Shown here piece after piece: positions 30,427 through 46,848 of a stretch of DNA of 55,157 nucleotides. The notes under the pieces were generated by a model. That model made no database searches and had not been told where the DNA came from. It saw only the letters and a program-made list of their open reading frames with translations. The stretch lies in IMG/VR virus record IMGVR_UViG_2721755660_000006, positions 1 through 55,157 of that record; one strand, 5' to 3'. The DNA comes from a virus. Its lineage: Duplodnaviria; Heunggongvirae; Uroviricota; Caudoviricetes. How positions within the stretch are numbered: the stretch's first letter is position 1; each line of letters begins with the position of its first letter. The position numbers and the translations under genes were made by a program.

Positions 30427-30449
30427 AGATTTACCTCCAACAAAGCAAA

Positions 30450-30470
30450 AACCCGGCGCGGTGCCGGGTA
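30450..30470 (-). terminator. Rho-independent terminator immediately upstream of the holin (candidate tR-prime-like late antitermination target)
   Basis: Minus strand reads CCCGGCACCGCGCCGGG then TTTTTGCTTTGTT, followed by GGAGG Shine-Dalgarno and the holin ATG. Confidence 0.6.
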
Positions 30471-30531
30471 ATTACAATTTCGCATTGTTAGGAAATATTT
30501 TAATCTATTTGTTTTTTATGCGCGATTATGG

Positions 30532-30729
30532 TTACAAATCACCAACCTTGCGCCAGTATCTATGATTAACCATCGTGATAACTTCTTTCGCTGTCATAGG
30601 TAAAAATGGCTCATGCCACCGATCAAGACTACCGAGGCGCATCAAAACGTGCTCACCTTCGAGGCGGTAATAAGCTCGCGTAGCCAATGACTGATAAACT
30701 CCATCATATTCATGGTCGCTATTTCCCAT
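30532..30729 (-). CDS. Hypothetical protein
   Basis: 65 aa from the Met preceded by GGAGCG (MGNSDHEYDGVYQ...). Confidence 0.45.
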   Translation of the reverse strand: MGNSDHEYDGVYQSLATRAYYRLEGEHVLMRLGSLDRWHEPFLPMTAKEVITMVNHRYWRKVGDL

Positions 30730-30912
30730 TTTTACGCTCCTTAATGGCTCGCCTGATTTGCTCTGCCGTAGCGTCGAAGAAAGCAATAAAAACAGTCACA
30801 GGCCAAAAAGGAATCTCAAGTCCACCAGGTTCTGCACCGCTAAACTTAATAAAACATGACATCAGGATCGCGCCAGCGATATAAAGCAAAAACAATCACA
30901 GCTATAAGGCAT

Positions 30913-31044
30913 TCAATCATCTTCACCCCCAAGATCGTGATAAATATCGTTAGGGTCTTCACCATGTTCCTCGCAAAAACGCTCAAATAGCGCCCAATTT
31001 TCAGAAAGAAACATGATTAATAAATTTTTATACCACTCTTCCAT
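30913..31044 (-). CDS. Hypothetical small acidic protein (43 aa)
   Basis: ATG directly follows the stop of the upstream gene; MEEWYKNLLIMFLSENWALFERFCEEHGEDPNDIYHDLGGEDD. Confidence 0.35.
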   Translation of the reverse strand: MEEWYKNLLIMFLSENWALFERFCEEHGEDPNDIYHDLGGEDD

Positions 31045-31293
31045 TTAATCATCCTCATCGTCTTCATGTTCAGCCAGGAACTCATCAACCACGCGGTAAG
31101 TTACTGGCGGGATGTATTCGAAATCATCAGAATCAAGATCAAGCGTCCTGCTGTCGCCGTCGTCGTCCAGCGTATTCATCCCTAATTCACCGAAAGGGCC
31201 ATACCCAATGTGGCCCAGGTATTCGCAACCAGTCGTAAAGCCAGGGTATTCACCTTTACAACGGATTTTGTAAGGTCTATTTGATGCGCTCAA
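31045..31293 (-). CDS. Hypothetical highly acidic protein
   Basis: 82 aa; C-terminal half is Asp/Glu-rich (DDDGDSRTLDLDSDDFEY...EHEDDEDD). Confidence 0.5.
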   Translation of the reverse strand: MSASNRPYKIRCKGEYPGFTTGCEYLGHIGYGPFGELGMNTLDDDGDSRTLDLDSDDFEYIPPVTYRVVDEFLAEHEDDEDD

Positions 31294-31600
31294 TTTTCGA
31301 TCCCCCGTCTTCCGATTCTGTTATTTTGTATTCCGCGACCTTTTCCGCGCCAATTAATTCGACTTCGTTTTCCGGGAAAGGATTAAGCACCAGCGCAGCA
31401 AAAACAAAGCCCCTGACTTTATTTAGATCTTCAAGGTGTTTTGCATCAAAAGGCGGTTCAGATACGTGGAAGCATTTAACGTGCGCGTCGTCTTCAGTGG
31501 CTACACGGAAACATGCGCCAGGTTGTCCGGCGAATTGTCCATGTTTTTTATCTTCTGAAATAGTGCCACGGAAAACTTTAACGCTGATAAATTTACTCAT
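31277..31600 (-). CDS. Hypothetical protein
   Basis: 107-aa ORF in co-directional gene string. Confidence 0.5.
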   Translation of the reverse strand: MSKFISVKVFRGTISEDKKHGQFAGQPGACFRVATEDDAHVKCFHVSEPPFDAKHLEDLNKVRGFVFAALVLNPFPENEVELIGAEKVAEYKITESEDGGSKIERIK

Positions 31601-31603
31601 TGT

Positions 31604-31885
31604 TTATTCTCCTTCGTAAAGAGTCGTCACCAGTTCGGCGTCAATTAGCGTGTTATGATCTGTATAAAACCCGTGGCGCATTGCGAAAGCTATTTCACCA
31701 GCCATTTTCCGCCACATGGGTAAAGATTCATTCAAGTATGTTTTTTCCAATTCCTCATTGTATGCCAATTCATAAAACCGACCACGATTAACATCTTCAA
31801 TAACGCGGCTGTATTCGCCATCTAACTTGCTATTACCGCGCCATAGTCTGATAACAACCACTGTTTCACTCCTTATTGGGGCCAT
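31604..31885 (-). CDS. Hypothetical protein
   Basis: ORF; probable GTG start after AAGGAG at about 31861. Confidence 0.45.
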   Translation of the reverse strand: MAPIRSETVVVIRLWRGNSKLDGEYSRVIEDVNRGRFYELAYNEELEKTYLNESLPMWRKMAGEIAFAMRHGFYTDHNTLIDAELVTTLYEGE

Positions 31886-31898
31886 CCGGCCCCGTGTT

Positions 31899-32040
31899 TT
31901 ATTCTTCTTCGTCCCCCTTGAATCCTAAACACTCCGCGTATTCGTCAATGCTTAATGCTTCTTCACCTGGTGCCAGTTCTTCAAAATAGCGGGCGTATAG
32001 TTCAAAGACCCAGGCCGGATATTTAGCGTTAGCGTTCATT
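31899..32040 (-). CDS. Hypothetical small acidic protein
   Basis: 46 aa from MNANAKYPAWVFELY; acidic C-terminus. Confidence 0.4.
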
Positions 32041-32136
32041 TTCTTGTCTCCCCTTCCGTCTTTCCTTGACTTATATATAACAAAATGGCACTGCCTGAAC
32101 AATGCCATTTTGTAAACTTTGCGGGGTAGATCACGT

Positions 32137-32361
32137 TTATGTTTCTTCCGTAAAAGTAACCTTCATCGCCCCGTCCGAACTACGGACAACGTAGCGACCA
32201 ATCCCCCGGCGCGGCTCCGCATACCATAAGTGACCGTAAGTGTCAGTCACGACGATAAAAGGCAATTTAGGTGATAACCCCATTGGTTTTTCAGCCGTAT
32301 ACTGTGCGCCTTCCTCAAAACAGCCTAATTCCGACTCGTTACACGTTAAAATCATTTTCAT
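32137..32361 (-). CDS. Small paralog family member 1
   Basis: 74 aa from MKMILTCNESELGCFEEGAQY; shares an F-x-x-G-x-x-Y core and D-x-G-x-h-W pattern with its neighbours. Confidence 0.45.
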   Translation of the reverse strand: MKMILTCNESELGCFEEGAQYTAEKPMGLSPKLPFIVVTDTYGHLWYAEPRRGIGRYVVRSSDGAMKVTFTEET

Positions 32362-32606
32362 ACCCCTACATACGAAAACGCAGCAAAAGCACCACCACCA
32401 GCACGCGCATAAACAAGCGCCGTGCCGCACCCCATCTTATAAAAGCGCCATAACTGGCCTTGATCGTCAGTAATGGCGTGAATATATTCCTGATCCTTTG
32501 CGTCAACCAATGCCGCGCCGACTTCGTAGATCTTGCCATTCTTAAAAAACGCGCTGCATCGTGAATACGTGCATTGATATCTATGATTCCGACTCATAAC
32601 AACCAC
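32358..32606 (-). CDS. Small paralog family member 2
   Basis: 82-aa ORF; FKNGKIYEVGAALVDAKDQEYIHAITDDQGQLW. Confidence 0.45.
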   Translation of the reverse strand: MVVMSRNHRYQCTYSRCSAFFKNGKIYEVGAALVDAKDQEYIHAITDDQGQLWRFYKMGCGTALVYARAGGGAFAAFSYVGV

Positions 32607-32861
32607 CTATTCCGGTTTACTGCCTTCGCGTTCACAAAATACAGCCACTTCATGGAAGTCATACACAATGCGATAATACACCTTGTCTGTGTAATGGAAG
32701 CGGGTAACATAAGCGAAATAAACCTTATCATCATCACCAGTTATCGCCATAGCTCCATCGCCGCCAGGTGCGCCGTGAAGTTGAACGCCGCAATAAATCT
32801 TCCCTTCATCGAAGATATTGCGATCGCGCGTCTGCACTATCTCAAAATATAAATGTTTCAT
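32607..32861 (-). CDS. Small paralog family member 3
   Basis: 84-aa ORF; FDEGKIYCGVQLHGAP...ITGDDDKVYF. Confidence 0.45.
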   Translation of the reverse strand: MKHLYFEIVQTRDRNIFDEGKIYCGVQLHGAPGGDGAMAITGDDDKVYFAYVTRFHYTDKVYYRIVYDFHEVAVFCEREGSKPE

Positions 32862-32870
32862 GCTTGCCCC

Positions 32871-33083
32871 TTAATAACGCACAAAACTAGCGGAAAAATC
32901 AGTGCCTGATATTTCGCCACCCCGATAAGTTGGCATAAATCCCCACACATCCCCACAATCATCAATCAATACAAGCGCCACGCCAACATCACTAATACCA
33001 TTGCCATAAACGATGTGAACATCATAGATTCGCCCAATAGTGAAAACGCTGTCATTGCTTGAATATGAGCATTTAACTTGCAT
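32871..33083 (-). CDS. Small paralog family member 4
   Basis: 70-aa ORF; FTIGRIYDVHIVYG...LIDDCGDVWGF. Confidence 0.45.
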   Translation of the reverse strand: MQVKCSYSSNDSVFTIGRIYDVHIVYGNGISDVGVALVLIDDCGDVWGFMPTYRGGEISGTDFSASFVRY

Positions 33084-33360
33084 TGTCAGCCACCTTTAAA
33101 TAATTTTTCGTGTCAATATCTGCCGGATACCTGGAAAATTGCGCCAGCCATTGTCCGGTAATGTTTTTCACCAGTGCATAATCAAGATCGCCGCAGTAGA
33201 ATACCTGGTACATTGTCCCTTCGTTATCATCCATAACAAAGACCATCGGATCAGTAGTCGCATTGCGCAGCCTGTGAATCGTGTAGGCCTGGCCAGTAGT
33301 GAATTTGTACTCGTTACACGTTGTGCGGCAAAACATCCGGTCAAAATAGCTTTCCATCAA
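33073..33360 (-). CDS. Small paralog family member 5
   Basis: 95-aa ORF; FTTGQAYTIHRL...VMDDNEGTMYQVFY. Confidence 0.45.
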   Translation of the reverse strand: MMESYFDRMFCRTTCNEYKFTTGQAYTIHRLRNATTDPMVFVMDDNEGTMYQVFYCGDLDYALVKNITGQWLAQFSRYPADIDTKNYLKVADNAS

Positions 33361-33608
33361 AAAATCCCCTTATAATCGACCGTGTATTTTGCTATCAGCT
33401 TCCATTCACAATAGCTTTCCATGTCGCGCGGTTGCCAGCCTTTCATGCCTACAGCACCACGCACGCCGTGGCGACGATAATTATCGTTATAGTCAGCTAC
33501 GCACCACGGCTGAAGCACAAACATGTAATTGGCCTCGTTAACCAGGATCGCCACCTGCTTTCCTGTTGCCTTATCTTTCGCCCGGAAATAACTTACCCTG
33601 ATTTTCAT
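33357..33608 (-). CDS. Hypothetical protein
   Basis: 83-aa ORF with GAGGT Shine-Dalgarno. Confidence 0.45.
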   Translation of the reverse strand: MKIRVSYFRAKDKATGKQVAILVNEANYMFVLQPWCVADYNDNYRRHGVRGAVGMKGWQPRDMESYCEWKLIAKYTVDYKGIF

Positions 33609-33822
33609 TTTTAATTACCTCGATCAACATTTCTTCTTCCAGGTTAGCCGGACGTTTACGGAATATCCCGGCAAAAACCAGATCATCGAGTAGGTCTTTA
33701 CGCTTAAATAACCATTCCTTCATTATTACCCCGTCATCGCTGCGATATACGACGCCGTTTTTCAAAAAATAAAAAGTGTGGGTATTTGTCTGAAGGTATA
33801 GATCTTCGTAAACGTCCATGAT
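33571..33822 (-). CDS. Hypothetical protein
   Basis: 83 aa from MDVYEDLYLQ, start just after the upstream stop. Confidence 0.4.
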   Translation of the reverse strand: MMDVYEDLYLQTNTHTFYFLKNGVVYRSDDGVIMKEWLFKRKDLLDDLVFAGIFRKRPANLEEEMLIEVIKNENQGKLFPGER

Positions 33823-33823
33823 A

Positions 33824-34051
33824 TTAACCCTCGACCACTTGCAGCCCGCGCCCCTTGTCGCCAACGAAGTCGCCAAGACTGAACGTATACGACCACGCCG
33901 GATTGATATAATTATCATCAGCACCGTGAGCAATAAGATCCTTGCCCATAATGACGCAGGTCACATCATCAGAGTGAATAACGTCTACTGTTTCCCCTAC
34001 TACGCGTTTTAATGACGGGTAGCCGTGATCGTGCAAGAATTTAACTTTCAT
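33824..34051 (-). CDS. Hypothetical protein
   Basis: 75-aa ORF in co-directional string. Confidence 0.45.
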   Translation of the reverse strand: MKVKFLHDHGYPSLKRVVGETVDVIHSDDVTCVIMGKDLIAHGADDNYINPAWSYTFSLGDFVGDKGRGLQVVEG

Positions 34052-34287
34052 TCGTCTGCCTCCCAGCGGTCAATGCTGATTAAAAAATCCCGGATAGCGT
34101 GGCGTTCATCGCGTGATGGTTTGCGCTTCCGGTAAATTTTAAAATCAAACCATTCCTTTTCTTGTTCGAAGTCCAGATCGTAAGCAAGCGCCTCAATATA
34201 TCCGCATTCGTGATACTGGTACGCCACGCCAGCACGAACAAAAAAGCGGGTTTTATCCCGCTTGTGCTCATAGATTCGCATATTCAC
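34048..34287 (-). CDS. Hypothetical protein
   Basis: 79-aa ORF. Confidence 0.45.
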   Translation of the reverse strand: MNMRIYEHKRDKTRFFVRAGVAYQYHECGYIEALAYDLDFEQEKEWFDFKIYRKRKPSRDERHAIRDFLISIDRWEADE

Positions 34288-34291
34288 CCCG

Positions 34292-34522
34292 TTATGCTGT
34301 TGTGTAGCTGTCAGTCAGTATTTCATCTTTCATCCTGGCAAGCTGTGCGATGTTCATCGTGTAGCCGCCATCAGCGAAAAGCAATTCCGCCGCCGCGCGA
34401 CGAAAAGCAATATCATCATGGTTACGTGTCCATGTAGCGATCACAACGCGTTTCCCGTTAGTGGCGAACATAGACAATTCATTATCAACAACGTCGATAG
34501 CCTGCCAGATTTTTAATTCCAT
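34292..34522 (-). CDS. Hypothetical protein
   Basis: 76-aa ORF. Confidence 0.45.
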   Translation of the reverse strand: MELKIWQAIDVVDNELSMFATNGKRVVIATWTRNHDDIAFRRAAAELLFADGGYTMNIAQLARMKDEILTDSYTTA

Positions 34523-34890
34523 GATTTATCCCCGTAGATCTTGAATAGTTCGCGCTCTTCCTGGTCTTCAACTATCCCTATATGCAGATCACGCAGGCGG
34601 CGCATTGTGCGGAATCGTGGCCTGAACTCCTGACTGCGTTTAATGTATTTGCCGCCAATTGAATAAATATGACCGTATGAGTACCATCTATTCCCTACCC
34701 ATATTTCATATTCTTTGTCTTCGTAATTGAATTTTATCGTTAGCTCGCCGACTTCAACTATTAACCCTTTGTCAATAATGTCATTGAGCATTTCGTCCCA
34801 TTCTTTGAGGAATGGTTGTTGATAAAAACCAAAAAGCGTATTCACAGCATGGCAAAGATAATCAATGATTATTTGCATATTGTCACACAC
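34513..34890 (-). CDS. Hypothetical protein
   Basis: 125-aa ORF. Confidence 0.45.
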   Translation of the reverse strand: MCDNMQIIIDYLCHAVNTLFGFYQQPFLKEWDEMLNDIIDKGLIVEVGELTIKFNYEDKEYEIWVGNRWYSYGHIYSIGGKYIKRSQEFRPRFRTMRRLRDLHIGIVEDQEERELFKIYGDKSWN

Positions 34891-35102
34891 ATCATATAAT
34901 AAACGTTATCATCAGCTAATAAGTCGGCGTCATCCTGAGTCATGTGTCTGGCCTCAAGGAAAAAATCCTCATCATGCCATTCACTAACAAGTAATCGCGC
35001 CCATTTTCGGCGCTGGCGCTTATTGCGTCGCAGATCATCAAAAGCCTTTAACGCTTTGTCATACGCCCTTACCAGGCGTTTACGGTTACTTTTCATTTTC
35101 AC
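34869..35102 (-). CDS. Hypothetical basic protein
   Basis: 77-aa ORF, Arg/Lys-rich N-terminus. Confidence 0.4.
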   Translation of the reverse strand: MKMKSNRKRLVRAYDKALKAFDDLRRNKRQRRKWARLLVSEWHDEDFFLEARHMTQDDADLLADDNVYYMMCVTICK

Positions 35103-35433
35103 CTCTCAACATCCAATTTCTGTCACATTTAATTGCGAATACCTTAACAGGATCAGGGCCGAATAATGGATGAGTGATAGTTTTTACTTCGTACCCAAAA
35201 TAAGGAAGGTTAATAATCCTGTGTTTTTCGTGGTTGGCAGGGTATCCCCATTTAATAATCAGGCGTTCATATTCCCGCCCTTCCAGACGTTTACGCCAAT
35301 AGTCATTATAAAGCCGGTATTCCTCCACCTTCTTTCCAGTCCATATGGCGTGGAAATATTCCCCTTTCAGATTCAAATGCAGGTCTTTACTTGCCATCGC
35401 TATGATCCTGTAAACAGTCGTTATAGCCTTCAA
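35086..35433 (-). CDS. Hypothetical protein (possible ASCH/PUA-like fold)
   Basis: 115 aa; weak resemblance by eye to ASCH-domain proteins. Confidence 0.4.
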   Translation of the reverse strand: MKAITTVYRIIAMASKDLHLNLKGEYFHAIWTGKKVEEYRLYNDYWRKRLEGREYERLIIKWGYPANHEKHRIINLPYFGYEVKTITHPLFGPDPVKVFAIKCDRNWMLRGENEK

Positions 35434-35659
35434 TGTATCCGGTTAATCCCGTGTTACTCACTGACCAATCAGCCGAACGGCGCTTGATGGCATCATCCAT
35501 CGTTATTTCACCTTTGCGGTGACATCCTGCATCAATGTAACGGTTGACAACTGAAGACAACCGCCCGCGTAACTGTTGTGTTCCGGCGTAATGACGGGCC
35601 GTTTCCGTCAGATCGTTAACCAACTGGCGGTAAATATGCTCTTTTAATTTAGGCTTCAT
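35387..35659 (-). CDS. Hypothetical protein
   Basis: ORF from MKPKLKEHIYRQL. Confidence 0.4.
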   Translation of the reverse strand: MKPKLKEHIYRQLVNDLTETARHYAGTQQLRGRLSSVVNRYIDAGCHRKGEITMDDAIKRRSADWSVSNTGLTGYIEGYNDCLQDHSDGK

Positions 35660-35996
35660 TATCGTCACCCTCGAAATACTGCTCAATCGCACGCTTGACG
35701 TTCATTTCACGCTGATAATTGTTATCGCTATAGATTGCGGCTGCCGATACGTGATCGATAATTTGCTGCAATAAAGCAGGATGAATTTTTATTTTTTCGT
35801 CAAGGACAATACGCGATGGCTTAGGTGCGGTAGCAATATCATAAACGATTTCTATCTCACCACGACCACCGCATCGCGGGCAAACAAACTTATCGTCTTG
35901 ATACAGCATGAAGCCGCAACCTTTTTCAGTTTTTACTACCATGCCGTCATCGTCGCAGTTTTCGCAATACAGCCACCCAATATTAAGTATTTTCAT
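35649..35996 (-). CDS. Zinc-ribbon protein (CxxC...CxxC)
   Basis: MKILNIGWLYCENCDDDG...FVCPRCGGRGEIE gives two CxxC pairs. Confidence 0.45.
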   Translation of the reverse strand: MKILNIGWLYCENCDDDGMVVKTEKGCGFMLYQDDKFVCPRCGGRGEIEIVYDIATAPKPSRIVLDEKIKIHPALLQQIIDHVSAAAIYSDNNYQREMNVKRAIEQYFEGDDNEA

Positions 35997-36186
35997 TGTC
36001 GTTACTCCGCCCGTAAATATGAACCGGCTCAATTGGCACGGCTGGCAATTCACCTTCGTTTAATGCGCTCGCCATACCCAATACCAAACGCGCTTCAGCA
36101 CCAGTGACTTTCTTACACCATGCACCGCCTGTTTTATCTTCAAATAAGATAACGGCAAACTGATCGTTTATTTCCAGCTTATCCAT
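35983..36186 (-). CDS. Hypothetical protein
   Basis: 67-aa ORF. Confidence 0.4.
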   Translation of the reverse strand: MDKLEINDQFAVILFEDKTGGAWCKKVTGAEARLVLGMASALNEGELPAVPIEPVHIYGRSNDNENT

Positions 36187-36914
36187 TATTCACCCCGCGT
36201 CACTCGTTTAATTTCGTTGTCAGCCCGCGCCTCTTCTTTGAACAATTCAGCAATGGCGTCTTCATAGAAAGCCCGGTATTTCTTCCACCATGTTGATCGG
36301 CTTACCGGGAAAACAAGCTGATTAACCGCCTGCCGGACAAGATCTACAGGGAAACGCGAGTACCCACGCCCGCCGCAGTGCTGGCATGTTTTGAACACTG
36401 GCATTTCCGCCGCCTCGCTGGCTGCTTTATCCGGTACTTCGCCACGGCCCTTGCACCGCTGGCAATGGTTTTTAACGTAGCCTTTGCCGCCGCACCGTGC
36501 GCAAATTGTTGATGTGTATTTGCAATATGGATTTGGTAAATGCCCGTGACCGCCGCACTTAGGGCAAACTTTTTCGGTCGCTGCACTCTGGCAGTAATCC
36601 CGAAACGCGAAAACGGCAACAAGAATAATAAGTCCATTGCGCTGATCCTCGTTTAACTCCATCACGTATTCGTAATCTTTTGCCATCGATTTTAAGCGGT
36701 CTATAAGCAACGACACGGCTTTATTTTTTTCAGCTTGCGATAGCTCCATCTTTCCCAAAAAAGCGCTATATCCAAGCTCTACGCGCGATTGCGCCATACC
36801 CGCAGCGGTTAGCGCATCCGTCGTATTAAGAGCGCCCGGGGACGTGCCCCGGCTTTCGTCAGATAATCGCGGTGATTTAGGAAAGTGGAATTTTAGAATG
36901 GATTCTAAATTCAT
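36186..36914 (-). CDS. DnaJ-type zinc-finger protein; candidate late-gene antiterminator (Q-like)
   Basis: 242 aa with four CxxCxG(K/R/H)G repeats (CPKCGGHGH, CARCGGKGY, CQRCKGRGE, CQHCGGRGY); located after the NinG/RusA nin-like genes. Confidence 0.4.
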   Translation of the reverse strand: MNLESILKFHFPKSPRLSDESRGTSPGALNTTDALTAAGMAQSRVELGYSAFLGKMELSQAEKNKAVSLLIDRLKSMAKDYEYVMELNEDQRNGLIILVAVFAFRDYCQSAATEKVCPKCGGHGHLPNPYCKYTSTICARCGGKGYVKNHCQRCKGRGEVPDKAASEAAEMPVFKTCQHCGGRGYSRFPVDLVRQAVNQLVFPVSRSTWWKKYRAFYEDAIAELFKEEARADNEIKRVTRGE

Positions 36915-37096
36915 TATTTGCCCTCATAACGTGCCGCCAGCCGTTTACGATCAGAAATGGATTGCACCAGCTTTCTTTCGAACTCTTTCAGCGCAAGTAA
37001 TTCGCGCATGTGGAAAGCCTGGATTTGTCGGACCGTCTCTAAATCACGCTCGTCGCGCTGAATATCTATTTGCAGATCTTTAACTTCGTTTTTCAT
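36914..37096 (-). CDS. Hypothetical coiled-coil protein
   Basis: 60-aa ORF. Confidence 0.4.
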   Translation of the reverse strand: MKNEVKDLQIDIQRDERDLETVRQIQAFHMRELLALKEFERKLVQSISDRKRLAARYEGK

Positions 37097-38102: not shown

Positions 38103-38113
38103 AAAAACCACCC

Positions 38114-38293
38114 CGATTATTTTTGATTCTCTGTTTCGTTCAGCCTTTCGGCGTGTCCGGCCATTAGCCAATGTTCTAAGCATTCGTTGCACTCGTTACA
38201 GCCTCCTTTCTTCGTGCTGCATACATTGCACATTGCACGCATAACGCTTTCTCGTTCATAGTCGTCATGCCATTGGTAATTATCAAAAGGCAT
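38114..38293 (-). CDS. Cys-rich small protein (zinc-finger-like)
   Basis: 59-codon ORF not in the track frame; AAGGAGAG Shine-Dalgarno; CNVCSTKKGGCNECNEC. Confidence 0.5.
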
Positions 38294-38452
38294 AATGCTC
38301 TCTCCTTTTCAGGTGATTTCTACGCATTTCAGCGCTGCCGGATTTTTAAAGAGCATTTTGTTTGCTTGAAGTATACAAAATGGATACGTGCTAACAAGGT
38401 GTAAAGCGCCATTATGTGACATTCATCACACAATGACGCCATTTTGTAAACT

Positions 38453-39759: not shown

Positions 39760-40210
39760 ACCTCAAATCAAGCCGATTAGTGACCTCACCGTTAAACTTC
39801 ACAGTAGGAATTATTTTCCCCGGAATAATCGACGGGTCCGGCCCTAAAATATCAGAGTAAAGTTTTATCCCTCCGCTGATAGGGAGATCAAAAACAGCCT
39901 GTTTCTTTCTTTGTTCTTCCTCCCGCTCCGTTAATATTTGCTCCGCTTTTAGCGCGTTATAGCTAATCAAATCAATTAACGTGTCTGTCGGATCGCTGTT
40001 ATTGCTCAAAATGGCTTCTAATCGCGCCTCCTTGAGACAAATTAGCAGATCCCATACATCAAGCGGGGTTAAATCTGCCCCCTTCTTAGCGTTGTAAATA
40101 GTGGCTATTTTTGGCGCTGATTTTTCCTCTTTTTTGTCGTAGCCGTTTTGTTTACCTCTTTGCTCTATGGTTTCCGCTGCAAGCCTTAATAAGTCTGTTG
40201 CCTTAGTCAT
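39698..40210 (-). CDS. Hypothetical protein
   Basis: 170-aa ORF overlapping the downstream gene start by about 60 nt in another frame. Confidence 0.45.
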   Translation of the reverse strand: MTKATDLLRLAAETIEQRGKQNGYDKKEEKSAPKIATIYNAKKGADLTPLDVWDLLICLKEARLEAILSNNSDPTDTLIDLISYNALKAEQILTEREEEQRKKQAVFDLPISGGIKLYSDILGPDPSIIPGKIIPTVKFNGEVTNRLDLRFDRSECIHDKRYDPNGKGDN

Positions 40211-40743
40211 TGTTCTGAACCTCTCGCATATAGCTCTTTACGTGTTATTTGCGTGAAAATACATTCATGTCTGCAACGTGGATGCCAGATCAAGAACAAG
40301 CTCCCTTTATTGTTTCCACTTGCTGGTTTCCCTGTCGCAGCATTGATAAACGCCAGCCGCCCGCGCGTGATTAATCGGCATTCGTTTGCCGTCTCCACGC
40401 CGTTCATAAACCAGCTAACAGAAATGTCAGCGGGCAATAACATTACGCATCCGATATGGTTTCGGCTGTGTTCAAGCGCCGCTTTATCAACGAATGGCCC
40501 CGGATTAGAATATGGTGGATTAAGCCAGACATACTCACCAGGCATTGCCACCGCTCCCCACGGATAATGCAACGTGTCCATTTCTTCTGTTATATATCGC
40601 GGGATTAATGCGTTTGCCTTGTTTGCCGCCACGTCCGCGACGAATTCGAATTCCCGATCCATTCCTCTAAAAACGGGTTTTGGCGTTTGCCATAAGTCTT
40701 TTATTTCTTTCGGCGTATGGCTGCCGCCGTAATCATTTTTCAT
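40207..40743 (-). CDS. Phage-type DNA N6-adenine methyltransferase (Dam family)
   Basis: 178 aa; N-terminal WQTPKPVF and catalytic NPPY (LNPPYS) typical of small phage Dam methyltransferases. Confidence 0.8.
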   Translation of the reverse strand: MKNDYGGSHTPKEIKDLWQTPKPVFRGMDREFEFVADVAANKANALIPRYITEEMDTLHYPWGAVAMPGEYVWLNPPYSNPGPFVDKAALEHSRNHIGCVMLLPADISVSWFMNGVETANECRLITRGRLAFINAATGKPASGNNKGSLFLIWHPRCRHECIFTQITRKELYARGSEQ

Positions 40744-40752
40744 TACGCCCCC

Positions 40753-41037
40753 TTAGAAATAATCCTGATCTGTTCCCCAGCGGTTATTCAGATACCCCAC
40801 CAACCACACAAAACGCTCAATACTGATTAGCGGGGCGACCTTGCGATAATGCTTGTCGAGTATCAGACGCGTGGCTTTATCGCTGTAGCCGTTCTTTTCT
40901 ACCTCCGCTTTGCAGGCCGAAAGCGCGGCGCGGGCGGCAGTCTTTACGGCGTTAAATTGCGGCTCAGACATATTGAATAAAGCCATAGGATCACCATGTA
41001 TCATCCCAATCCGGCGCAGCAGTCCAGCAAAAACCAA
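40753..41037 (-). CDS. Hypothetical protein
   Basis: 94-aa ORF. Confidence 0.4.
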   Translation of the reverse strand: MVFAGLLRRIGMIHGDPMALFNMSEPQFNAVKTAARAALSACKAEVEKNGYSDKATRLILDKHYRKVAPLISIERFVWLVGYLNNRWGTDQDYF

Positions 41038-41242
41038 TGAATGCGCTCACAGCCAATAAAGCGCGGGCTGCAAAAAGAATATTCCCAATGTCGTTAAATT
41101 CAGGCAGCGACCACGTAATAAACATAGCCCCCAGCATGATAACACCGATAACAGTCAGGGCCGCAAGGAAAACAAAAAGCGTAGCCAAAAGCCACGCCCC
41201 AAACCAGTTAAAAAAGCTCTTAAGCATTTTAAACGTCCTCAA
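40991..41242 (-). CDS. Small membrane protein
   Basis: 83 aa with two hydrophobic helices. Confidence 0.45.
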   Translation of the reverse strand: MRTFKMLKSFFNWFGAWLLATLFVFLAALTVIGVIMLGAMFITWSLPEFNDIGNILFAARALLAVSAFIGFCWTAAPDWDDTW

Positions 41243-41432
41243 TTACCCCACCTTTCACGCGCTCTTTAATATCCCATACGTGAGGCTTGCATATTTCTTG
41301 ATAATAGTGATCCGGCCTGCTGCCGAAATACCATTTACCATCCATATAAAAATAAACGCCAGAAAAATTACCAGGTGCGGCCTTTGTTGCTGATTCTGGA
41401 ATTTTCCATTCTCTGTAATGTTTAAACCGCAT
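41229..41432 (-). CDS. Hypothetical protein
   Basis: 67-aa ORF; aromatic/Gly motif resembling the next gene. Confidence 0.4.
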   Translation of the reverse strand: MRFKHYREWKIPESATKAAPGNFSGVYFYMDGKWYFGSRPDHYYQEICKPHVWDIKERVKGGVIEDV

Positions 41433-41616
41433 GTAATGACACCTCCCGGATAAGTTTACTTAATTCAATGTCTGGTAGTCTGCGAAAATGCTGTACACCA
41501 TCGACAAAGCGCACGCAATAAATATCGCCTACATTGTTGTAGTAATAACAGCCGCTAAAACCAATTCCCGCCAATTTAGCGTTATCAGGCAACGTATAGC
41601 CGCCAACATTTTTCAT
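41422..41616 (-). CDS. Hypothetical protein
   Basis: 64-aa ORF. Confidence 0.4.
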   Translation of the reverse strand: MKNVGGYTLPDNAKLAGIGFSGCYYYNNVGDIYCVRFVDGVQHFRRLPDIELSKLIREVSLHAV

Positions 41617-41714
41617 AAATCACCTCATATGGTATTCAATAAACCACCTGATAAACAGGCATAAGGCAATAAAACCCCAGCAGCAGCACATATAAAACAA
41701 TGTATCGTCCATAA

Positions 41715-41933
41715 TTAAGCCTCAATAACACCGTAATCAAACGTGCCTAAATACCGTTCTATACTTACAACCTCAGCACCATCAATGCACCGTTTCCACA
41801 CAGACACCTGGCTTTCATTTTCTCTGAAGTGCATATTAGAAAGCACTTCATCGGCTGGATAGCCTTTCCCAGCGACGTAGGCATCGTGACCTACGCCACC
41901 TTCTACGCAATAAAGCATCAATTCGCGTTCCAT
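41715..41933 (-). CDS. Hypothetical protein
   Basis: 72 aa from MERELMLYCVEGG, preceded by GGAGGAAG Shine-Dalgarno. Confidence 0.45.
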   Translation of the reverse strand: MERELMLYCVEGGVGHDAYVAGKGYPADEVLSNMHFRENESQVSVWKRCIDGAEVVSIERYLGTFDYGVIEA

Positions 41934-42031
41934 TTTGCTTCCTCCGCACCGTAAACCTTTTGATTTTGGCTTACAAAACGGACATGCGATCACAATACAT
42001 AATGTATATTTATGTAATCGGAATCACTCGG

Positions 42032-42652
42032 TTAATGCAGTACACGTTTTTCCTGTTCAGGCATCGGCTGTGCGTTTTTCCGTGCATCATTAAGCACAGC
42101 GATAGCCGCCTGTACACCGAAATCATTTGCGCGCATATCATTGCCAACCATTTCACCGTAAAACAGCGGCATAAACGCTTTTACTTCTTCTTCTTTGTGG
42201 CCTTCCTCAATGCATTTCTGCAACATTTTAACTTCAAAGATGTTTTTCATCAGGCCGCGCATAGAATGCAGTGAAACACTACCAAACTGATCCTTGTTCA
42301 ACGGGAAAATAACAGCACTTCCGAACGCGAGCGGATCAACCTCTTCCGGCACTGGTACGCGTCCGAATTCTTCCTCCATGCGCTTCACAAAAGTAAGAGA
42401 GAATACATAACGCGCTACCGATGTTTTTTCTTCCATACTTAAAGACACGTAATCGCGGATTGACGCACCCATCACAATATCAACAACCTGCAGCGCCAGA
42501 TTCAAATCAGCGTCATACGCGCCAGCTTCCATATCTTTCAATACTTCGTGATAATCTTTAATTTCCACTTCGTGAAAGTTTGCATCATCTGTATAGCGAG
42601 TGATCAACATACCTTCATTACCGAGAGAGTAAGCTGTTTTGATGTCGTTCAT
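42032..42652 (-). CDS. Hypothetical protein
   Basis: 206-aa ORF. Confidence 0.5.
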   Translation of the reverse strand: MNDIKTAYSLGNEGMLITRYTDDANFHEVEIKDYHEVLKDMEAGAYDADLNLALQVVDIVMGASIRDYVSLSMEEKTSVARYVFSLTFVKRMEEEFGRVPVPEEVDPLAFGSAVIFPLNKDQFGSVSLHSMRGLMKNIFEVKMLQKCIEEGHKEEEVKAFMPLFYGEMVGNDMRANDFGVQAAIAVLNDARKNAQPMPEQEKRVLH

Positions 42653-42665
42653 GATATTTATCCTT

Positions 42666-42998
42666 TTATAGTGGGTGATGCCATTTCATTTCTGTTTCTG
42701 AATTAAACGGGTTTCCTTCGCTTGAAAGGAATAAATCACGCTCCCGTTTCAGTTCTTCCGGGCTTATTTCTATTTCATCAATCTGACCGAACGATCCCGG
42801 CATCATTCGTTTTAAATCAGATAGCGGACGCATAAGGCCGCAACCGCGTAACAGCATATCGACCGCGAATTGTCTACGTCCGGCGGCGTCATTAAAGCGC
42901 CGCGCCCAGGGCACAACCACGATCCGGCGTTCGAATTTGATAAATAGTGATAGCTTGTTTGTTTCGCTATCATATGCTTTATGGAATTTAATTTTCAT
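42666..42998 (-). CDS. Hypothetical protein
   Basis: 110-aa ORF. Confidence 0.45.
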   Translation of the reverse strand: MKIKFHKAYDSETNKLSLFIKFERRIVVVPWARRFNDAAGRRQFAVDMLLRGCGLMRPLSDLKRMMPGSFGQIDEIEISPEELKRERDLFLSSEGNPFNSETEMKWHHPL

Positions 42999-43179
42999 TT
43001 AACACCTCGACGTATTGCTCAAGATGCCATTTACCAACTTCATCCATGTTTTCGTCGTATATAATGACCTCTCCGCCTTGCCTGAATCTGAAAGCAGTGG
43101 CTGTAAATTCACGGCCCCACCACGCCTTTAAGCGCTCCCCACCTTTCAGGTGTTTAACCTTTACTTCTTTTATAGCCAT
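42988..43179 (-). CDS. Hypothetical protein
   Basis: 63-aa ORF. Confidence 0.4.
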   Translation of the reverse strand: MAIKEVKVKHLKGGERLKAWWGREFTATAFRFRQGGEVIIYDENMDEVGKWHLEQYVEVLNEN

Positions 43180-43442
43180 ACGCCGAACATCCCATTCAGT
43201 CCGGCGAACAATTTCCGCCAGTGGTTTTCAACATAAGCCCGGAACGGCTTAACGCGAACATTGCGGGCCTTCAGTTCAATCTTGTCGAAGAAACGCGGCT
43301 CTATAATTGTTCCGTCCAGATATTTAACTAGGATCGGGCGCTCAAGATCGTTATATGTCTTGTTCAGCACAACCAGACCAGGGTCTTTACGGTATTCCGG
43401 GAGCACAACAAGATCACCCGTTTTGATATTCATGAATGGCAT
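43170..43442 (-). CDS. Hypothetical protein
   Basis: 90 aa from the ATG overlapping the upstream mini-gene stop (TGATG). Confidence 0.45.
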   Translation of the reverse strand: MPFMNIKTGDLVVLPEYRKDPGLVVLNKTYNDLERPILVKYLDGTIIEPRFFDKIELKARNVRVKPFRAYVENHWRKLFAGLNGMFGVWL

Positions 43443-43558
43443 CACATCACCCCGCCGATATAGCTAATAATTGCCGCAGTCGCGCCAGCTATTACCACCA
43501 TGAAGACGAAAGCGACCACACAGAAAACAGCCTTGACAGTATTTTTGTCGACTCGCAT
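43442..43558 (-). CDS. Mini membrane peptide (38 aa)
   Basis: MRVDKNTVKAVFCVVAFVFMVVIAGATAAIISYIGGVM; GAGGT Shine-Dalgarno; coupled to flanking genes. Confidence 0.45.
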   Translation of the reverse strand: MRVDKNTVKAVFCVVAFVFMVVIAGATAAIISYIGGVM

Positions 43559-43565
43559 ATAAACC

Positions 43566-43673
43566 TCACATGTCAGTAATCAGCTTAACAATCGCCACAG
43601 TGATATAGAGTGACGCACTAAGGTAAACAGCCGCCACAGCAACGGCGGCGGATAACATTGCAATCTTTTTCAT
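43566..43673 (-). CDS. Mini membrane peptide (35 aa)
   Basis: MKKIAMLSAAVAVAAVYLSASLYITVAIVKLITDM; ATG overlaps the upstream stop (ATGA). Confidence 0.45.
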   Translation of the reverse strand: MKKIAMLSAAVAVAAVYLSASLYITVAIVKLITDM

Positions 43674-43894
43674 TTGCCACCCTCCGCAATGAACTTATCA
43701 AGCCATTTGTTATTAGCCAGCCGTTCGGCATCTTCGCCGAATGATTTACGTTCGCTTAATTCCTGTCGAGTAGGGAAAGGCCATTTATCAACCCAGCCCG
43801 CAGACGTCTCGAATTCGTACAGCCCGCCGCCGAAAGTGATAAGCTCATCAGCGCCGTCAGGAATTTCTCCGTCAACTTCTTTATCTTCGATCAT
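43670..43894 (-). CDS. Hypothetical protein
   Basis: 74-aa ORF. Confidence 0.45.
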   Translation of the reverse strand: MIEDKEVDGEIPDGADELITFGGGLYEFETSAGWVDKWPFPTRQELSERKSFGEDAERLANNKWLDKFIAEGGK

Positions 43895-43908
43895 GATTTA
43901 ATACCTCA

Positions 43909-44193
43909 TTAATCGTTAATAACCTGACCCATACGCCCGCGATATTTGCGCATACGTGGATCGACATATTCAGGCCAATGCATATCATCAGCTTTCTGTA
44001 GTGGGTAAAAACTTGCCTGCCAGTTGTCGAACCATATTTGCTTTGCGTACAGGTCACTAAATCTTTTCGCCATTCGATCCGCTGCCGTGCCGCATAAAAA
44101 AAGCCCGCGATCGATTTGATCACGGGCTTCTCTTAAAACTTGCTCTTTTGTTCGCGGCGGCGGCGGTGCTTTTAAATAATCACCCATCGCCAA
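43909..44193 (-). CDS. Hypothetical protein
   Basis: 94-aa ORF directly downstream of ssb. Confidence 0.45.
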   Translation of the reverse strand: MAMGDYLKAPPPPRTKEQVLREARDQIDRGLFLCGTAADRMAKRFSDLYAKQIWFDNWQASFYPLQKADDMHWPEYVDPRMRKYRGRMGQVIND

Positions 44194-44202
44194 CCTATTG
44201 AA

Positions 44203-44619
44203 TCAGAACGGAATATCATCGTCGAAGTCCATCGGCGGCGGATTATTCCCGTTATTATTTTGAGGCGGTGGCGCTTTCTGCTGCTGGCCTTGCTGCTGGC
44301 CTTGTTGGTTAACGTTCATGAATTCAAATTCGTTAACCGCCACTTCTACCGCCGTCCCCTTCGTGCCGTCGTTCCGGTCATATTGCCGAACATCTAGGCG
44401 ACCGCTTACCACTATTTTTCCACCCTTGCGGATATGTGGCGCTAATTTTTCCGCACGCTCACCAAATACCAGGCAAGTGACCCACATTGTCCGCTTATTA
44501 TCGCCGTAGCCATTCGTTACAGCTAACGGAAAACTACCAATCGCTTTCCCGTTTTGTGTGTAGCGAACCTCCATATCATTACCGATATTCCCGCCCAGCG
44601 TGATTGAATTTAAACTCAT
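44203..44619 (-). CDS. ssb: Single-stranded DNA-binding protein
   Basis: 138 aa; OB-fold-like N-terminus, Gln/Gly/Pro/Asn-rich linker and acidic tip MDFDDDIPF. Confidence 0.9.
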   Translation of the reverse strand: MSLNSITLGGNIGNDMEVRYTQNGKAIGSFPLAVTNGYGDNKRTMWVTCLVFGERAEKLAPHIRKGGKIVVSGRLDVRQYDRNDGTKGTAVEVAVNEFEFMNVNQQGQQQGQQQKAPPPQNNNGNNPPPMDFDDDIPF

Positions 44620-45260
44620 TAACCCATCTCCCCGTTAAGCTCTGCTACCCGGATGTCATAAACATCTTTTGCCTTGATTCGATGCTCCGATCCTTCCGGT
44701 AGTAATTTCCAGCATTTGCCAAATATTTCACGCAGCTTGTTAGCGTCCTGCGCTTTCGCTGCTGCATCACAGAAACGTGCTAATACTTCATCAGGATTTG
44801 GCGGCGCTTTATTCTGCTGCGGTTGTTGTTTTGGTGGGTTTTTCTGTTGTCGCGGCTGCTGGCCTGTCTGCTTCGCGTAAGCATCAGTATCAGGATCGCG
44901 AGCATCATCTATACAGAATAAACCGTTCAAAGCATATTTACGCGCGTAACTTGATGTTGCTCCTGTTAGCTGGCTGGCGTCCATACCCTTCTTGCTTTCT
45001 TCCTCCCTGGCATAAGCAGTTACCGCTATTACGTCTTCACCGTCGCTTAGCGTCGCCGTTGCTTTCACATAATAGCGATTGCCGATCAGGACAATTTCAT
45101 CACTAACAGTCAGCGTGATATTTTGAAGCAGTGGTTTAACCGCCTCTAAAATATCCTCCGCCGACCTGTAATTATATCCACCAAAATTATTACGCTGATT
45201 TTTCGGCGCGTTCAGCGTTTGCTGAATCGTCCATAGCTTTTTATGTAACTCTGTTTTCAC
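44619..45260 (-). CDS. erf: ERF-family single-strand annealing protein
   Basis: 213 aa; NFGGYNYRSAEDILEAVKPLL signature and Gln/Pro-rich C-terminal region; probable GTG start. Confidence 0.8.
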   Translation of the reverse strand: MKTELHKKLWTIQQTLNAPKNQRNNFGGYNYRSAEDILEAVKPLLQNITLTVSDEIVLIGNRYYVKATATLSDGEDVIAVTAYAREEESKKGMDASQLTGATSSYARKYALNGLFCIDDARDPDTDAYAKQTGQQPRQQKNPPKQQPQQNKAPPNPDEVLARFCDAAAKAQDANKLREIFGKCWKLLPEGSEHRIKAKDVYDIRVAELNGEMG

Positions 45261-45379
45261 TATTTAATCTCCCGTGCTGTTAACACTATGTATAAGGCTT
45301 TATTCGCGGCGCTCCACATTTCGGCATCGTGAAGCATTTCCGCTACTGCCAGTTTGAATTGAAGCGCCTGAATAACCAT
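45260..45379 (-). CDS. Hypothetical mini-protein (39 aa) upstream of erf
   Basis: MVIQALQFKLAVAEMLHDAEMWSAANKALYIVLTAREIK; its stop overlaps the erf GTG start. Confidence 0.35.
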   Translation of the reverse strand: MVIQALQFKLAVAEMLHDAEMWSAANKALYIVLTAREIK

Positions 45380-45409
45380 AATGTCATCTCCGGATGTTTA
45401 CATTTTGTA

Positions 45410-45661
45410 TTAATGATAGCGGACTTTATCCAGGGGTTTTTCCCCTAAATGTCGTGGTTGCGTTGCGTGGTAGTAGCTGCCGCTTTCATTTTCCGTATAC
45501 CATTTTACTGATCCTTTGCGACGTTCTTTAATGCTATTTGGTTTGCATCTTTCCTCGTTTGCAAATCGAATAGCTTTATCCACATTGTCTGTTTTATTGA
45601 TTGCAGGTGATGATTTTCTTTCGTTTTCTCTTTTTATCCTTCTGCGTTCCCTGGCATTCAT
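45410..45661 (-). CDS. N-like antitermination protein candidate (arginine-rich motif)
   Basis: MNARERRRIKRENERK resembles the lambda N arginine-rich motif (MDAQTRRRERRAEKQ); first gene leftward of the cI-like gene. Confidence 0.45.
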   Translation of the reverse strand: MNARERRRIKRENERKSSPAINKTDNVDKAIRFANEERCKPNSIKERRKGSVKWYTENESGSYYHATQPRHLGEKPLDKVRYH

Positions 45662-46200
45662 TTTGCTATCACATTTACCATATATAATTGTAACGCTCAT
45701 AATCTGATCTCCGTATATCCTTGATGATACTTAATAAAAAATCATCTTCGTTAATTGCCGCACTTCCAGCGGCTGACCAGATTGTTAATGAGCGGCTTAA
45801 CATCTTTCAACTAATCCCGCAATCATCGCCGTTCCCGGCGTGACCTTGCTCACTCCAAGCAAGCTGACTCGTCGCCTTGCGTGCGGTTTCGTGGGGGATG
45901 TAACGCTTTAAACACCCCATGCGCCTTGTTATCAGTGCCGCTTTCGGTCCCCAATCGGGGAGTTACTCCACGGTTGACAAGGTGTTAAGCCTGATTTTTA
46001 AAGTGCCAGGAAGTTGCTTTTGTTACCTGCGCCCTTCCTTTGACTCGCAATATACGCCCCGTAAAACATCGAGTCAATCCATTTTGTATACTTTTTTAAA
46101 ATATTTTATATGTCATTGATATTTAAATAATAAATAACGTTTTCTGTTTACGTTTTGGTGTTTTCCAGGCAAAGAAAAGCCGCCATTCGGCGGCTAATGT
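45662..46200 (-). promoter_or_regulatory. cI-to-N intergenic region (candidate pL/nutL-type region)
   Basis: About 540-bp non-coding gap between the repressor and the N-like gene; inferred from lambdoid organisation only. Confidence 0.3.
46170..46198 (-). terminator. Rho-independent terminator after the cI-like gene
   Basis: GCCGCCGAATGGCGGC hairpin followed by TTTTCTTTG on the minus strand. Confidence 0.65.
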
Positions 46201-46848
46201 TTATGGCAGGTTTACGATCTTCGCATCAACCACCACGCCTATAATTTTTGATTCTGGATTCATAGGGATTGGCGGATACAGCGGATTCAGCGAACGTAAA
46301 AGCCTTTGACCTCCATCAATAATCAACTGTTTAAACGTCGGTATCTGCCCTTCCTCAAGCTGGGCTATAACCAGTTTGCCGTCAATAGCTGGCGCGTGCG
46401 GGTCAACAAGTATCATCGTCCCCGCCGGGATGCTCAACCCCTGCGGCGCGTTCATTGATTCACCTTTGGCAACCAGCCAGTAACTATCATCTGAACAAAT
46501 AACGCTAGTCGTAACGTGTGGTAATGCTGATCGCCTTGTGTCATCCATATTGTTTACTGTGTCCTTCCAGTCAATAACCGGGTAACTACCTAAATCACGC
46601 GGCGGTGCGGCCTGAAGTGTATTAGAAACAGAATCATCAATGACCATACCATCATGTGTAACAGTGAACTGACGACGCCCAAGCGCCCGCATAATCCGCG
46701 CAATATCTTCAAGATTTGGCTCGCGGCGACCGTTAAGCCAGTGTGACAGGCCGCCTTTAGTTATCCCCATGAGATCTGCGAGTGAATCCTGACTCATGCC
46801 CTGCGCCCGCATGAGCTGCTTTGCTAAGTCATACCATTTTGTTTTCAT
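46201..46848 (-). CDS. CI-like repressor (HTH plus S24 LexA-type peptidase domain)
   Basis: 215 aa; N-terminal HTH (MSQDSLADLMGITKGGLSHWLNG) and C-terminal S24-like autocleavage region with GESM and DGKLVIAQL. Confidence 0.85.
   Translation of the reverse strand: MKTKWYDLAKQLMRAQGMSQDSLADLMGITKGGLSHWLNGRREPNLEDIARIMRALGRRQFTVTHDGMVIDDSVSNTLQAAPPRDLGSYPVIDWKDTVNNMDDTRRSALPHVTTSVICSDDSYWLVAKGESMNAPQGLSIPAGTMILVDPHAPAIDGKLVIAQLEEGQIPTFKQLIIDGGQRLLRSLNPLYPPIPMNPESKIIGVVVDAKIVNLP

Follow-up and report, generated by a model that had tools for sequence, protein, structure and literature searches.

A candidate Q-responsive late cassette before the holin gene of an mEp021-like Escherichia coli prophage

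Where does a Q-type antiterminator act when its gene lies kilobases away from the lysis genes? The question is raised by a 55,157-nucleotide (nt) stretch of viral DNA (IMG/VR record IMGVR_UViG_2721755660_000006, referred to here as the window), in which a gene for a Q-like protein is separated from the holin gene by a long run of small open reading frames (ORFs). An original prediction made from the sequence had placed the two genes about 5.7 kb apart, had described a module order that differs from lambda, and had left the identity of the late antiterminator unsettled. The distance holds: from the Q stop codon to the holin ATG there are 5,760 bp. The identity is less mysterious than the prediction implied, since the N-like protein is a homologue of Gp17 of phage mEp021 and the Q-like protein is a homologue of lambda Q. 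For the Q loading site, we describe a conserved block at positions 30427-30531 as a concrete candidate. Our joint explanation, to which we give an even chance, is that the window is a prophage of the mEpimmI group at abgT, with two divergent early operons and with Q acting at a compact cassette just before the holin gene. In phages of this group an N system and a Q protein, both of lambda type, are wired together differently, and the value that remains in the locus is in its regulatory detail.

An mEp021-like prophage with a published gene order

Genome comparison assigns the window to the published mEpimmI (mEp021-like) group of E. coli prophages, with its insertion next to abgT. A megablast search with positions 30000-47500 found phage MagusPhagus (PP925836) at 98.3% identity, that is, with about 2% of bases differing, six coliphages (mEp010, mEp044, mEp554, mEp013, mEp515, and mEp021) at 86 to 89% identity, and matching regions in 34 complete E. 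coli chromosomes. E. coli strains with prophages of this kind include UMNK88 and O157:H7 LSU61. The region of the original prediction is 69 to 90% covered in seven phage genomes. The window as a whole is colinear with mEp021 (MH706966), in reverse orientation, from the J gene to the integrase gene, in blastn blocks of 74 to 89% identity. Relative to mEp021 and other mEpimmI phages, the whole-genome order is alike and the differences are confined to variable accessory genes; the Q-to-holin interval, for example, is ~5.7 kb in the window and ~2 kb in mEp021.

The mEpimmI group was described in 2025 as “Nus-dependent non-lambdoid” coliphages, from 48 genomes of high synteny with genes in “functional clusters” (PMC11893012). 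The window shares with this group its genome-wide similarity and synteny, an N protein of the Gp17 type, three nut positions, and a repressor like lambda CI. Nus dependence and immunity group I are phenotypes that further characterize it. Members are classed as non-lambdoid and integrate at ydaM, abgT, or mppA, with an integrase type that corresponds to the site; some of them use the abgT 3′ end for attachment (PMC11893012). In the window, a gap of 150 bp separates the end of the host gene abgT (1..1446, plus strand; PF03806, 3e-197) from the start of the tail-fibre gene at 1596, and the prophage junction lies in this gap. The neighbour of the prophage at its tail-fibre end is thus abgT, an arrangement published for type II integrases (PMC11893012), and the junction on the integrase side lies outside the window.

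The genes named in the original prediction are all present at their places and on their strands in Pfam and PHROGs searches, and the module order differs from lambda as it had described. The lambdoid order (int-xis-recombination-N, cI, cro-replication-nin-Q-lysis-head-tail) is not found in the window, where the repressor has the N, recombination, nin, Q, and late genes to one side and the replication genes to the other. A further mark of lambdoid phages is the ability to form viable recombinants with lambda. As judged from the annotated modules, the replication and N-plus-recombination modules have swapped sides of the immunity region relative to lambda, which makes the N, recombination, methyltransferase, nin, Q, accessory, lysis, and morphogenesis genes consecutive on the repressor strand. 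The prediction had called this order non-canonical. It is not a new oddity: both the order and the N-like system have already been published for the mEpimmI group (PMC11893012), and the order itself is the signature of a common, described group of gut coliphages with a 98% identical phage genome in GenBank.

The comparison with related prophages that had been proposed as a check therefore shows the order to be real and, at the same time, not unique to the window: it is annotated in mEp021, MagusPhagus, mEp010, mEp044, and three E. coli prophages, and was kept in every one of the eight records inspected in all. This bears on the possibility, raised with the prediction, that assembly errors produced the order, and on that of a chimera of two prophages. 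We consider this explanation refuted and exceedingly improbable, given the full-length colinearity with an independently sequenced phage genome, the identical order in every inspected record, the eight phage records and 34 chromosomes that match the region, and the presence of the holin-proximal block in 39 viral contigs, most of them ~54 kb long.

The Q protein and a conserved block before the holin

We next consider the antiterminator itself. The Q gene (36186..36914, minus strand) encodes 242 amino acids that match PF03589 at 1e-30 (106.1 bits, against a cut-off of 26.7); PF03589 is the Q-lambda family (PMC9388147). In a phmmer comparison with lambda Q (PDB 7UBM; E = 3.3e-38), residues 1-114 and 150-240 align to lambda residues 1-114 and 117-207, so that homology spans the full length, from the N-terminal segment, which forms the nozzle in lambda, through the C-terminal body. 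Judged by its sequence, then, the protein is a member of the Q-lambda family, and the “zinc-finger Q-like gene” of the original prediction is more exactly a full-length Q-lambda homologue with a zinc arm. This arm carries CxxC motifs at 117/120, 138/141, 151/154, and 177/180, four in place of the two in lambda Q; the number is doubled by an insertion of ~35 residues (115-149), the only difference from lambda Q in the alignment, and the protein also matches the Pfam family DnaJ_CXXCXGXG. All four are DnaJ-like CxxCxGxG motifs, with two predicted zinc centres. Ordinary lambdoid prophages of Enterobacteriaceae carry abundant homologues with the same long arm, 255 to 281 amino acids in length. Its DNA-site specificity likely differs from that of lambda Q. 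Among relatives, Q is 83 to 100% identical in every close one compared and 70% identical in the most divergent (L048).

In lambda and in four other prophages with a Q-lambda homologue, a promoter lies ~10 to 80 nt past the Q stop codon, followed by the pause element AACGATGGG at +1 and then by a terminator. The DNA after Q is organized differently in the mEpimmI phages. There is no conventional promoter-terminator cassette beside Q: in the eight genomes compared there is no intergenic DNA after the gene at all, its stop codon overlapping or nearly meeting the next start (as TAATG in seven), and from there on the genomes are no longer similar to one another. A terminator-like site with a T run was not found for ~1.7 kb past the Q stop, the nearer match at 35013-34997 having no T run. 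The site of action of Q in these phages is not addressed in the literature that we searched.

What follows Q in the window is a series of small co-directional ORFs (30532..36186, minus strand), about 25 in number, as in the MagusPhagus annotation (25 coding sequences), rather than the approximately 20 cargo genes first counted. Their PHROGs matches are all to families of unknown function, and their content varies between genomes. These ORFs are real genes, because third codon positions hold a share of 0.49 to 0.86 of the substitutions. In presence/absence profiles the universal core consists of five ORFs (33360-34535). The most variable accessory part (32137-33360, minus strand) holds five small ORFs of ~70 to 95 amino acids with the look of tandem paralogues; two of them match phrog_31142, and by eye they share the motif G..Y....(I/V).DD.G..W. 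Inside a gp39-like ORF lies a hairpin with a T run (34244..34263, minus strand), which is invariant in 18 genomes except for a compensatory synonymous pair in mEp010 (GCGGG/CCCGC to GCGCG/CGCGC) and may terminate or attenuate transcription on the way from Q to the lysis genes.

The sole conserved non-coding DNA that we found between Q and the late genes is the block of ~105 bp directly in front of the holin gene (30427..30531, minus strand), and it is kept whatever gene precedes it. Reading toward the holin, it contains a candidate weak -35 element (30525-30520), the conserved spacer AAACAAAYAGAT, a candidate -10 element TAAAAT (30502-30497), a -10-like pause element AACAAT-GCG (30489-30481), a terminator hairpin ACCCGGCACCGCGCCGGGT with a T run (30469-30451), and a Shine-Dalgarno sequence GGAGG (30438-30434). 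The hairpin is the one that the original prediction had placed just before the holin, and its position corresponds to TERM_5 of mEp021, a genome in which TAAAAT lies at 24263-24268. The layout can be written as AAACAAAYAGAT-TAAAAT-AYTNYCT-AACAAT-GCGAAA-YTGTAAY-hairpin-TTTTTGCTTTGTTGGAGGTAAATCTATG, with 7 nt between TAAAAT and AACAAT-GCG and the hairpin starting 15 nt further on. The block is nearly invariant in the 30 distinct versions collected; most of these were retrieved by a pattern that fixes part of the block, and the records obtained free of the pattern are equally conserved. The positions that vary fall in the 7-nt gap and just past the pause element, and both hexamers are constant in all sequences seen. 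In L048 an upstream ORF runs into the block, yet AAACAAAAAGATTAAAAT is kept, and the gap between the hexamers is 6 nt, as in lambda. The distance from Q to the block ranges from 1.9 to 7.2 kb among 24 loci.

The arrangement resembles that of Q-lambda late promoters. The lambda promoter reads TAAATT-TGACTC-AACGAT-GGG; AACGAT occupies +1 to +6, and polymerase pauses at +16 (PMC4005639). All five canonical late promoters that we examined have a -10 element, 5 to 6 nt, and then AACGATGGG, and in two of the five the terminator hairpin follows only ~30 to 45 nt downstream. The block, with TAAAAT-ATTTCCT-AACAAT-GCG, is much like a Serratia prophage promoter, TAATTT-CTTTCT-AACGAT-GGG, whose terminator hairpin starts at about +31. 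When all 110,204 positions of the window were scored with a matrix built from the five canonical promoters only, the block came 4th, with a score of 13.0 that ties with ranks 2 and 3. On the sense strand, the block came first in 12 of 19 Q-to-holin regions and among the top three in 18 of the 19, L048 being the exception. By our own estimate, the chance that a top-four site falls on the right strand of a 60-nt stretch defined before the scan is ~0.002.

On these grounds we propose that the block serves as the late promoter and as a Q loading site displaced from the Q gene, and that the hairpin is the terminator of this unit, a reading to which we assign slightly less than an even chance. A lambda-like immunity region drives two divergent early operons. 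In the wiring that we envisage, the N-like protein would carry RNA polymerase through early terminators, allowing Q to be made. The early role of Gp17 is a literature report for mEp021 (PMC11893012); the order of the timing steps is one that we infer. A promoter-like site at ~38.4 kb linked to nutR2 would feed ninG, rusA, Q, and the accessory genes. Q would then load onto polymerase away from its own gene, at the compact cassette upstream of the holin, where TAAAAT would serve as the -10 element, AACAAT-GCG would lie at about +1 to +9, and the hairpin would start at about +21. Polymerase modified by Q would pass the pre-holin terminator and later ones into the lysis, packaging, head, and tail genes, and the 2 to 7 kb of small genes between Q and the cassette would be delayed-early, not late. 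It is possible, though on the unlikely side, that this arrangement arose by a split of the Q cassette, with Q staying in the nin region while promoter, pause, and terminator shrank to ~80 bp fused to the start of the holin gene and 2 to 7 kb of exchanging early genes came to lie between them.

The candidate cassette shares with the lambda late switch (PMC9388147, PMC4005639) a -10 element, a gap of 6 to 7 nt, a -10-like hexamer at +1, and a terminator. It differs in lying 1.9 to 7.2 kb from Q, behind real genes and not adjacent to it, in having a weak -35 element, and in its pause hexamer, which is AACAAT-GCG where lambda has AACGAT-GGG. The terminated RNA of the candidate cassette is predicted to be ~45 nt long. 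The lambda 6S RNA is 194 nt. In the Shiga toxin phages 933W and H-19B, pR′ and tR′ directly follow Q, several kilobases of accessory DNA extend from Q to the holin, and this cargo is Q-dependent and late. The window likewise has accessory DNA between Q and the holin, without conserved promoter-like DNA after Q, and on our preferred reading its cargo is instead upstream of the late promoter.

A blastn search with the block against a phage collection matched seven mEp-type genomes only and no lambdoid phage in that collection, an Rfam search of the whole window returned no family, and a degenerate block pattern run over genome contigs gave 66 chance matches in unrelated AT-rich genomes.

Competing accounts of late expression

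Several observations weigh against a promoter in the block. The -35 element is poor (TCGCGC or TTGTAG, with a T and a G alone invariant), the site comes 38th within the Q-to-holin region by a crude sigma-70 score, and the block leaves the top eight once the family matrix includes a -35 element. For pausing, the block has AACAAT-GCG, whereas all five canonical cassettes examined share AACGATGGG. With two occurrences of the loose pattern TANNNT-N7-AACRATG in the window where 0.47 would be expected, the motif alone is not significant. Moreover, CUAACAAUGCGAAA, which makes up the 3′ half of the block, can pair with the U tract and with the bases that precede the ribosome-binding site. The result is an extended hairpin (minimum free energy, -33.9 kcal/mol; z = -4.2) that is kept by RNAalifold and that could explain conservation of the block at the RNA level without a promoter. 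Finally, “t5” is listed among the experimentally shown terminators in the work on Gp17 (PMC11893012). If t5 is the holin-proximal hairpin, as the order of TERM_1 to TERM_5 in the mEp021 record suggests, N-type read-through may suffice without Q.

These points lead to an account in which there is no late promoter before the holin. Polymerase would start at the promoters at ~46.06 and ~38.38 kb and, modified by Gp17 at nutR1 and nutR2, read through all terminators; the block would act only as RNA, as an extended terminator stem, as a structure around the holin ribosome-binding site, or as both, and Q would be auxiliary or act at a site that we failed to recognize. In addition to the weak -35 element, this account draws on the reported action of Gp17 at three nut sites and the experimentally shown t5 (PMC11893012), on boxA sequences at the expected positions, and on the long fold of the block, U tract, and ribosome-binding region, in which 94.9% of pair cells are paired among 16 sequences. 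The same alignment contains a single compensatory cell, however, and 124 of 500 shuffles equal it, so that covariation neither supports nor excludes the RNA structure. The outer stems, including the pairing with the Shine-Dalgarno sequence, are broken in about half of the sequences, and the 5′ half of the block, AAACAAAnAGATTAAAAT, is conserved in L048 despite a different proposed 3′ pairing partner. No boxA-like sequence within 3 mismatches precedes the holin terminator, a result that also removed a fourth nut site from consideration; a boxB-like stem at that place (ACAAU/AUUGU) is broken by an uncompensated T-to-C change in many genomes. The retention of a full-length Q, at 83 to 100% identity in close relatives and 70% in the most divergent, argues that Q has a target. 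We regard read-through without a late promoter as unlikely, though far from negligible.

A different account would keep the Q-dependent promoter beside Q or inside the core-gene coding DNA just after it, and the small ORFs would then be late, as stx is in Shiga toxin phages. One candidate is GTGACG-16-TAAGCT-7-AACGAT (36203-36163, minus strand), which straddles the Q stop codon and has an exact AACGAT at a lambda-like spacing. The site recurs in 10 of 19 genomes; it is absent from the other 9, including mEp021 and mEp044, all of which have Q, it lies within a real coding frame, and the next ~1.7 kb contain no terminator-like site with a T run. We rejected it on this distribution and on the missing terminator. 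The conserved hairpin at 34263-34244, with its one compensatory change, would fit the same account, and in mEp021 it lies ~230 nt past the Q stop, near the lambda geometry. A promoter in the preceding gp38-like ORF that would use this hairpin as its terminator was also rejected: its -10 element GATAAT reads GATAAC or GACAAC in 7 of 18 genomes, a change that destroys the key T, so that the sequence is not under promoter constraint, and the ORFs there show a strong third-position bias. The hairpin itself looks genuine. A Q site next to its own gene, or inside the core genes just after it, seems to us quite improbable.

If the preferred reading, a compact Q-responsive cassette in front of the holin, is correct, the Q gene and its loading site need not travel as one module, the block would be a minimal natural Q-responsive element, and the position of the cassette would tell early from late among the small genes. 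More speculatively, transcripts from upstream might fold the block over the holin ribosome-binding site and those from the compact promoter might not, in which case the holin would be translated only from the late promoter. We examined such occlusion by an upstream anti-Shine-Dalgarno sequence and retain it as speculation only: the pairing exists in the window, but of 16 sequences 6 lack pair 41/105 and 8 lack pair 44/102, and covariation is no better than in shuffles.

Early operons and the remaining genes

The early functions on which the proposed wiring depends are recognizable on both sides of the repressor. The repressor gene (46201..46848, minus strand) encodes a CI-like protein with a helix-turn-helix domain (PF01381, HTH_3; 5e-13) and an S24 peptidase domain (PF00717; 4e-19), and is annotated as the cI repressor in mEp010 and mEp044. 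A terminator-like hairpin follows it (46178..46195, minus strand) at the position of TERM_1 in mEp021. The N-like gene (45410..45700, minus strand) encodes a protein 93% identical to mEp021 gp17 that matches phrog_271, “anti-termination protein N-like,” at 1.3e-13. Gp17 proteins are recognized by the conserved arginines R17, R19, R20, and R24 (PMC11893012), and the window protein has R17, R19, R20, R21, and R24 within the segment NARERRRIKRE. Gp17 is reported to be an early antiterminator acting at three nut sites, nutL, nutR1, and nutR2 (PMC11893012, citing Valencia-Toxqui 2023). The boxA sequence GCTCTTTAAAAATC occurs exactly at 47013-47026 (plus strand), the nutL position, and at 38341-38354 (minus strand), the nutR2 position. 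With one mismatch, the boxA-like GCACTTTAAAAATC (45993..46006, minus strand) matches the published nutR1 position (PMC11893012), and a second boxA-like sequence, GCTCATTAACAATC, with two mismatches, lies at 45780-45793 (minus strand). The boxB hairpins at these nut sites were judged by eye only.

The best consensus match in our promoter scan (10/12) is the leftward early promoter-like site TTGACT-17-TATATT (46049..46077, minus strand). An internal site, TTGTTA-16-TATACT (38397-38370, minus strand), is followed by the exact boxA of nutR2 (38354-38341), and this promoter/nutR2 unit aligns with the rightward promoter/nutL unit. A separate promoter and nut site thus probably serve ninG, rusA, Q, and the small genes. 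As in lambda, the system comprises an arginine-rich N-like protein and boxA-like sequences with short hairpins after early promoters on both sides of the repressor. It differs from lambda in having three nut sites (published) where lambda has two, with the third placed mid-operon behind its own promoter-like site, and in that the N operon runs on into nin, Q, and the late genes, whereas the lambda N operon ends at int. The original prediction had described the leftward genes as a single string. By the predicted signals this string is not one operon: promoter-like sites occur at ~46.0 and ~38.4 kb with several intrinsic terminators along it, and plus-strand ORFs in the tail module interrupt it.

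Several of these promoter-like sites involve a 16-nt motif, TCCATTTTGTAWACTT, which has seven copies in the window against 0.11 expected: 13431-13446 (minus), 32104-32119 (plus), 38369-38384 (minus), 38438-38453 (plus), 46078-46093 (plus), 46921-46936 (plus), and 49974-49989 (plus). Two of the copies flank the repressor gene, one on each side, and two form an inverted pair at 38369-38453; the others are found ahead of dnaB, within the tail module, and on the antisense strand of the accessory region. mEp021 likewise has seven copies, at mostly matching places. Several overlap promoter-like -10 regions, on both repressor flanks and upstream of nutR2. The 38369-38384 copy, TCCATTTTGTATACTT, forms the spacer and -10 element of the internal promoter-like site, 15 nt upstream of the nutR2 boxA, and motif and boxA are found at the same place in mEp021. 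The motif may be an operator, a promoter class, or both. The copy at 46078-46093 abuts the leftward early promoter-like site and is directed away from it, toward the 3′ end of the repressor gene. The hairpin at 46178-46195 lies ~100 nt past this copy, with a poor T run on that strand; a short rightward transcript starting at the motif is conceivable.

The remaining genes complete the map. On the minus strand, downstream of the N-like gene, are erf (44619-45260; Pfam ERF, 4e-42), ssb (44203-44619; Pfam SSB, 2e-23), and abc2 (43909-44193; phrog_656, 1e-31), followed by genes for a Dam methyltransferase (40207-40743; Pfam Dam, 7e-51) and, two ORFs later, a second DNA methyltransferase (38453-39217; phrog_757, 1e-87). 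A small ORF (38117-38293; phrog_30170, unknown function) occupies the position of the “putative NinF” (gp34) of mEp021, and NinG (37497-38192; Pfam, 1.5e-66) and RusA (37093-37500; Pfam, 4e-15) precede Q. Beyond the block, the lysis cassette (29275..30426; Pfam PF16080, PF00959, and PF03245 across the cassette) consists of the holin (30226-30426), lysozyme (29733-30224), and Rz (29275-29757) genes.

The rightward operon (46921..53964, plus strand) begins with the promoter-like motif at 46921-46936 and the boxA at the nutL position and continues through replication genes (47155-48471), an exonuclease-like ORF (48867-49985), DnaB (50004-51425), and NinB (52487-52915). Its first gene (47155-47409) resembles only the N-terminal domain of a replication initiator (PHROGs, 8e-19) and not Cro, and neither side of the repressor yielded a Cro-like gene. 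The operon ends with a small ORF (53746-53964) that overlaps convergently the gene for a tyrosine integrase (53922..55157, minus strand; PF13356, PF00589). The original prediction had called this ORF Xis-like. The ORF is there, rightward and convergent with int; the label rests on one weak match to a “DNA binding protein” (E = 3.5e-4).

The packaging, head, and tail genes, including the tail-fibre gene, occupy 1596..27468 on the minus strand, with a few plus-strand islands, and are colinear with mEp021. They include TerS (26983-27468), TerL (25502-26986), the portal (24050-25444), the tape measure (14270-16618), and J (5536-9864). The plus-strand ORFs inside the tail module, at 11845-14237 and 16922-17341, match in position the opposite-strand genes gp63, gp65-68, and gp71-74 of mEp021, a cluster said to contain the published genes for lipoprotein exclusion. 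Between an ORF that follows the lysis genes and the small terminase gene, ~1 kb (27469-28453) has little coding potential; the counterpart in mEp021 is ~0.5 kb long, with a predicted terminator after the lysis genes. This gap may hold the packaging site or further regulatory elements.

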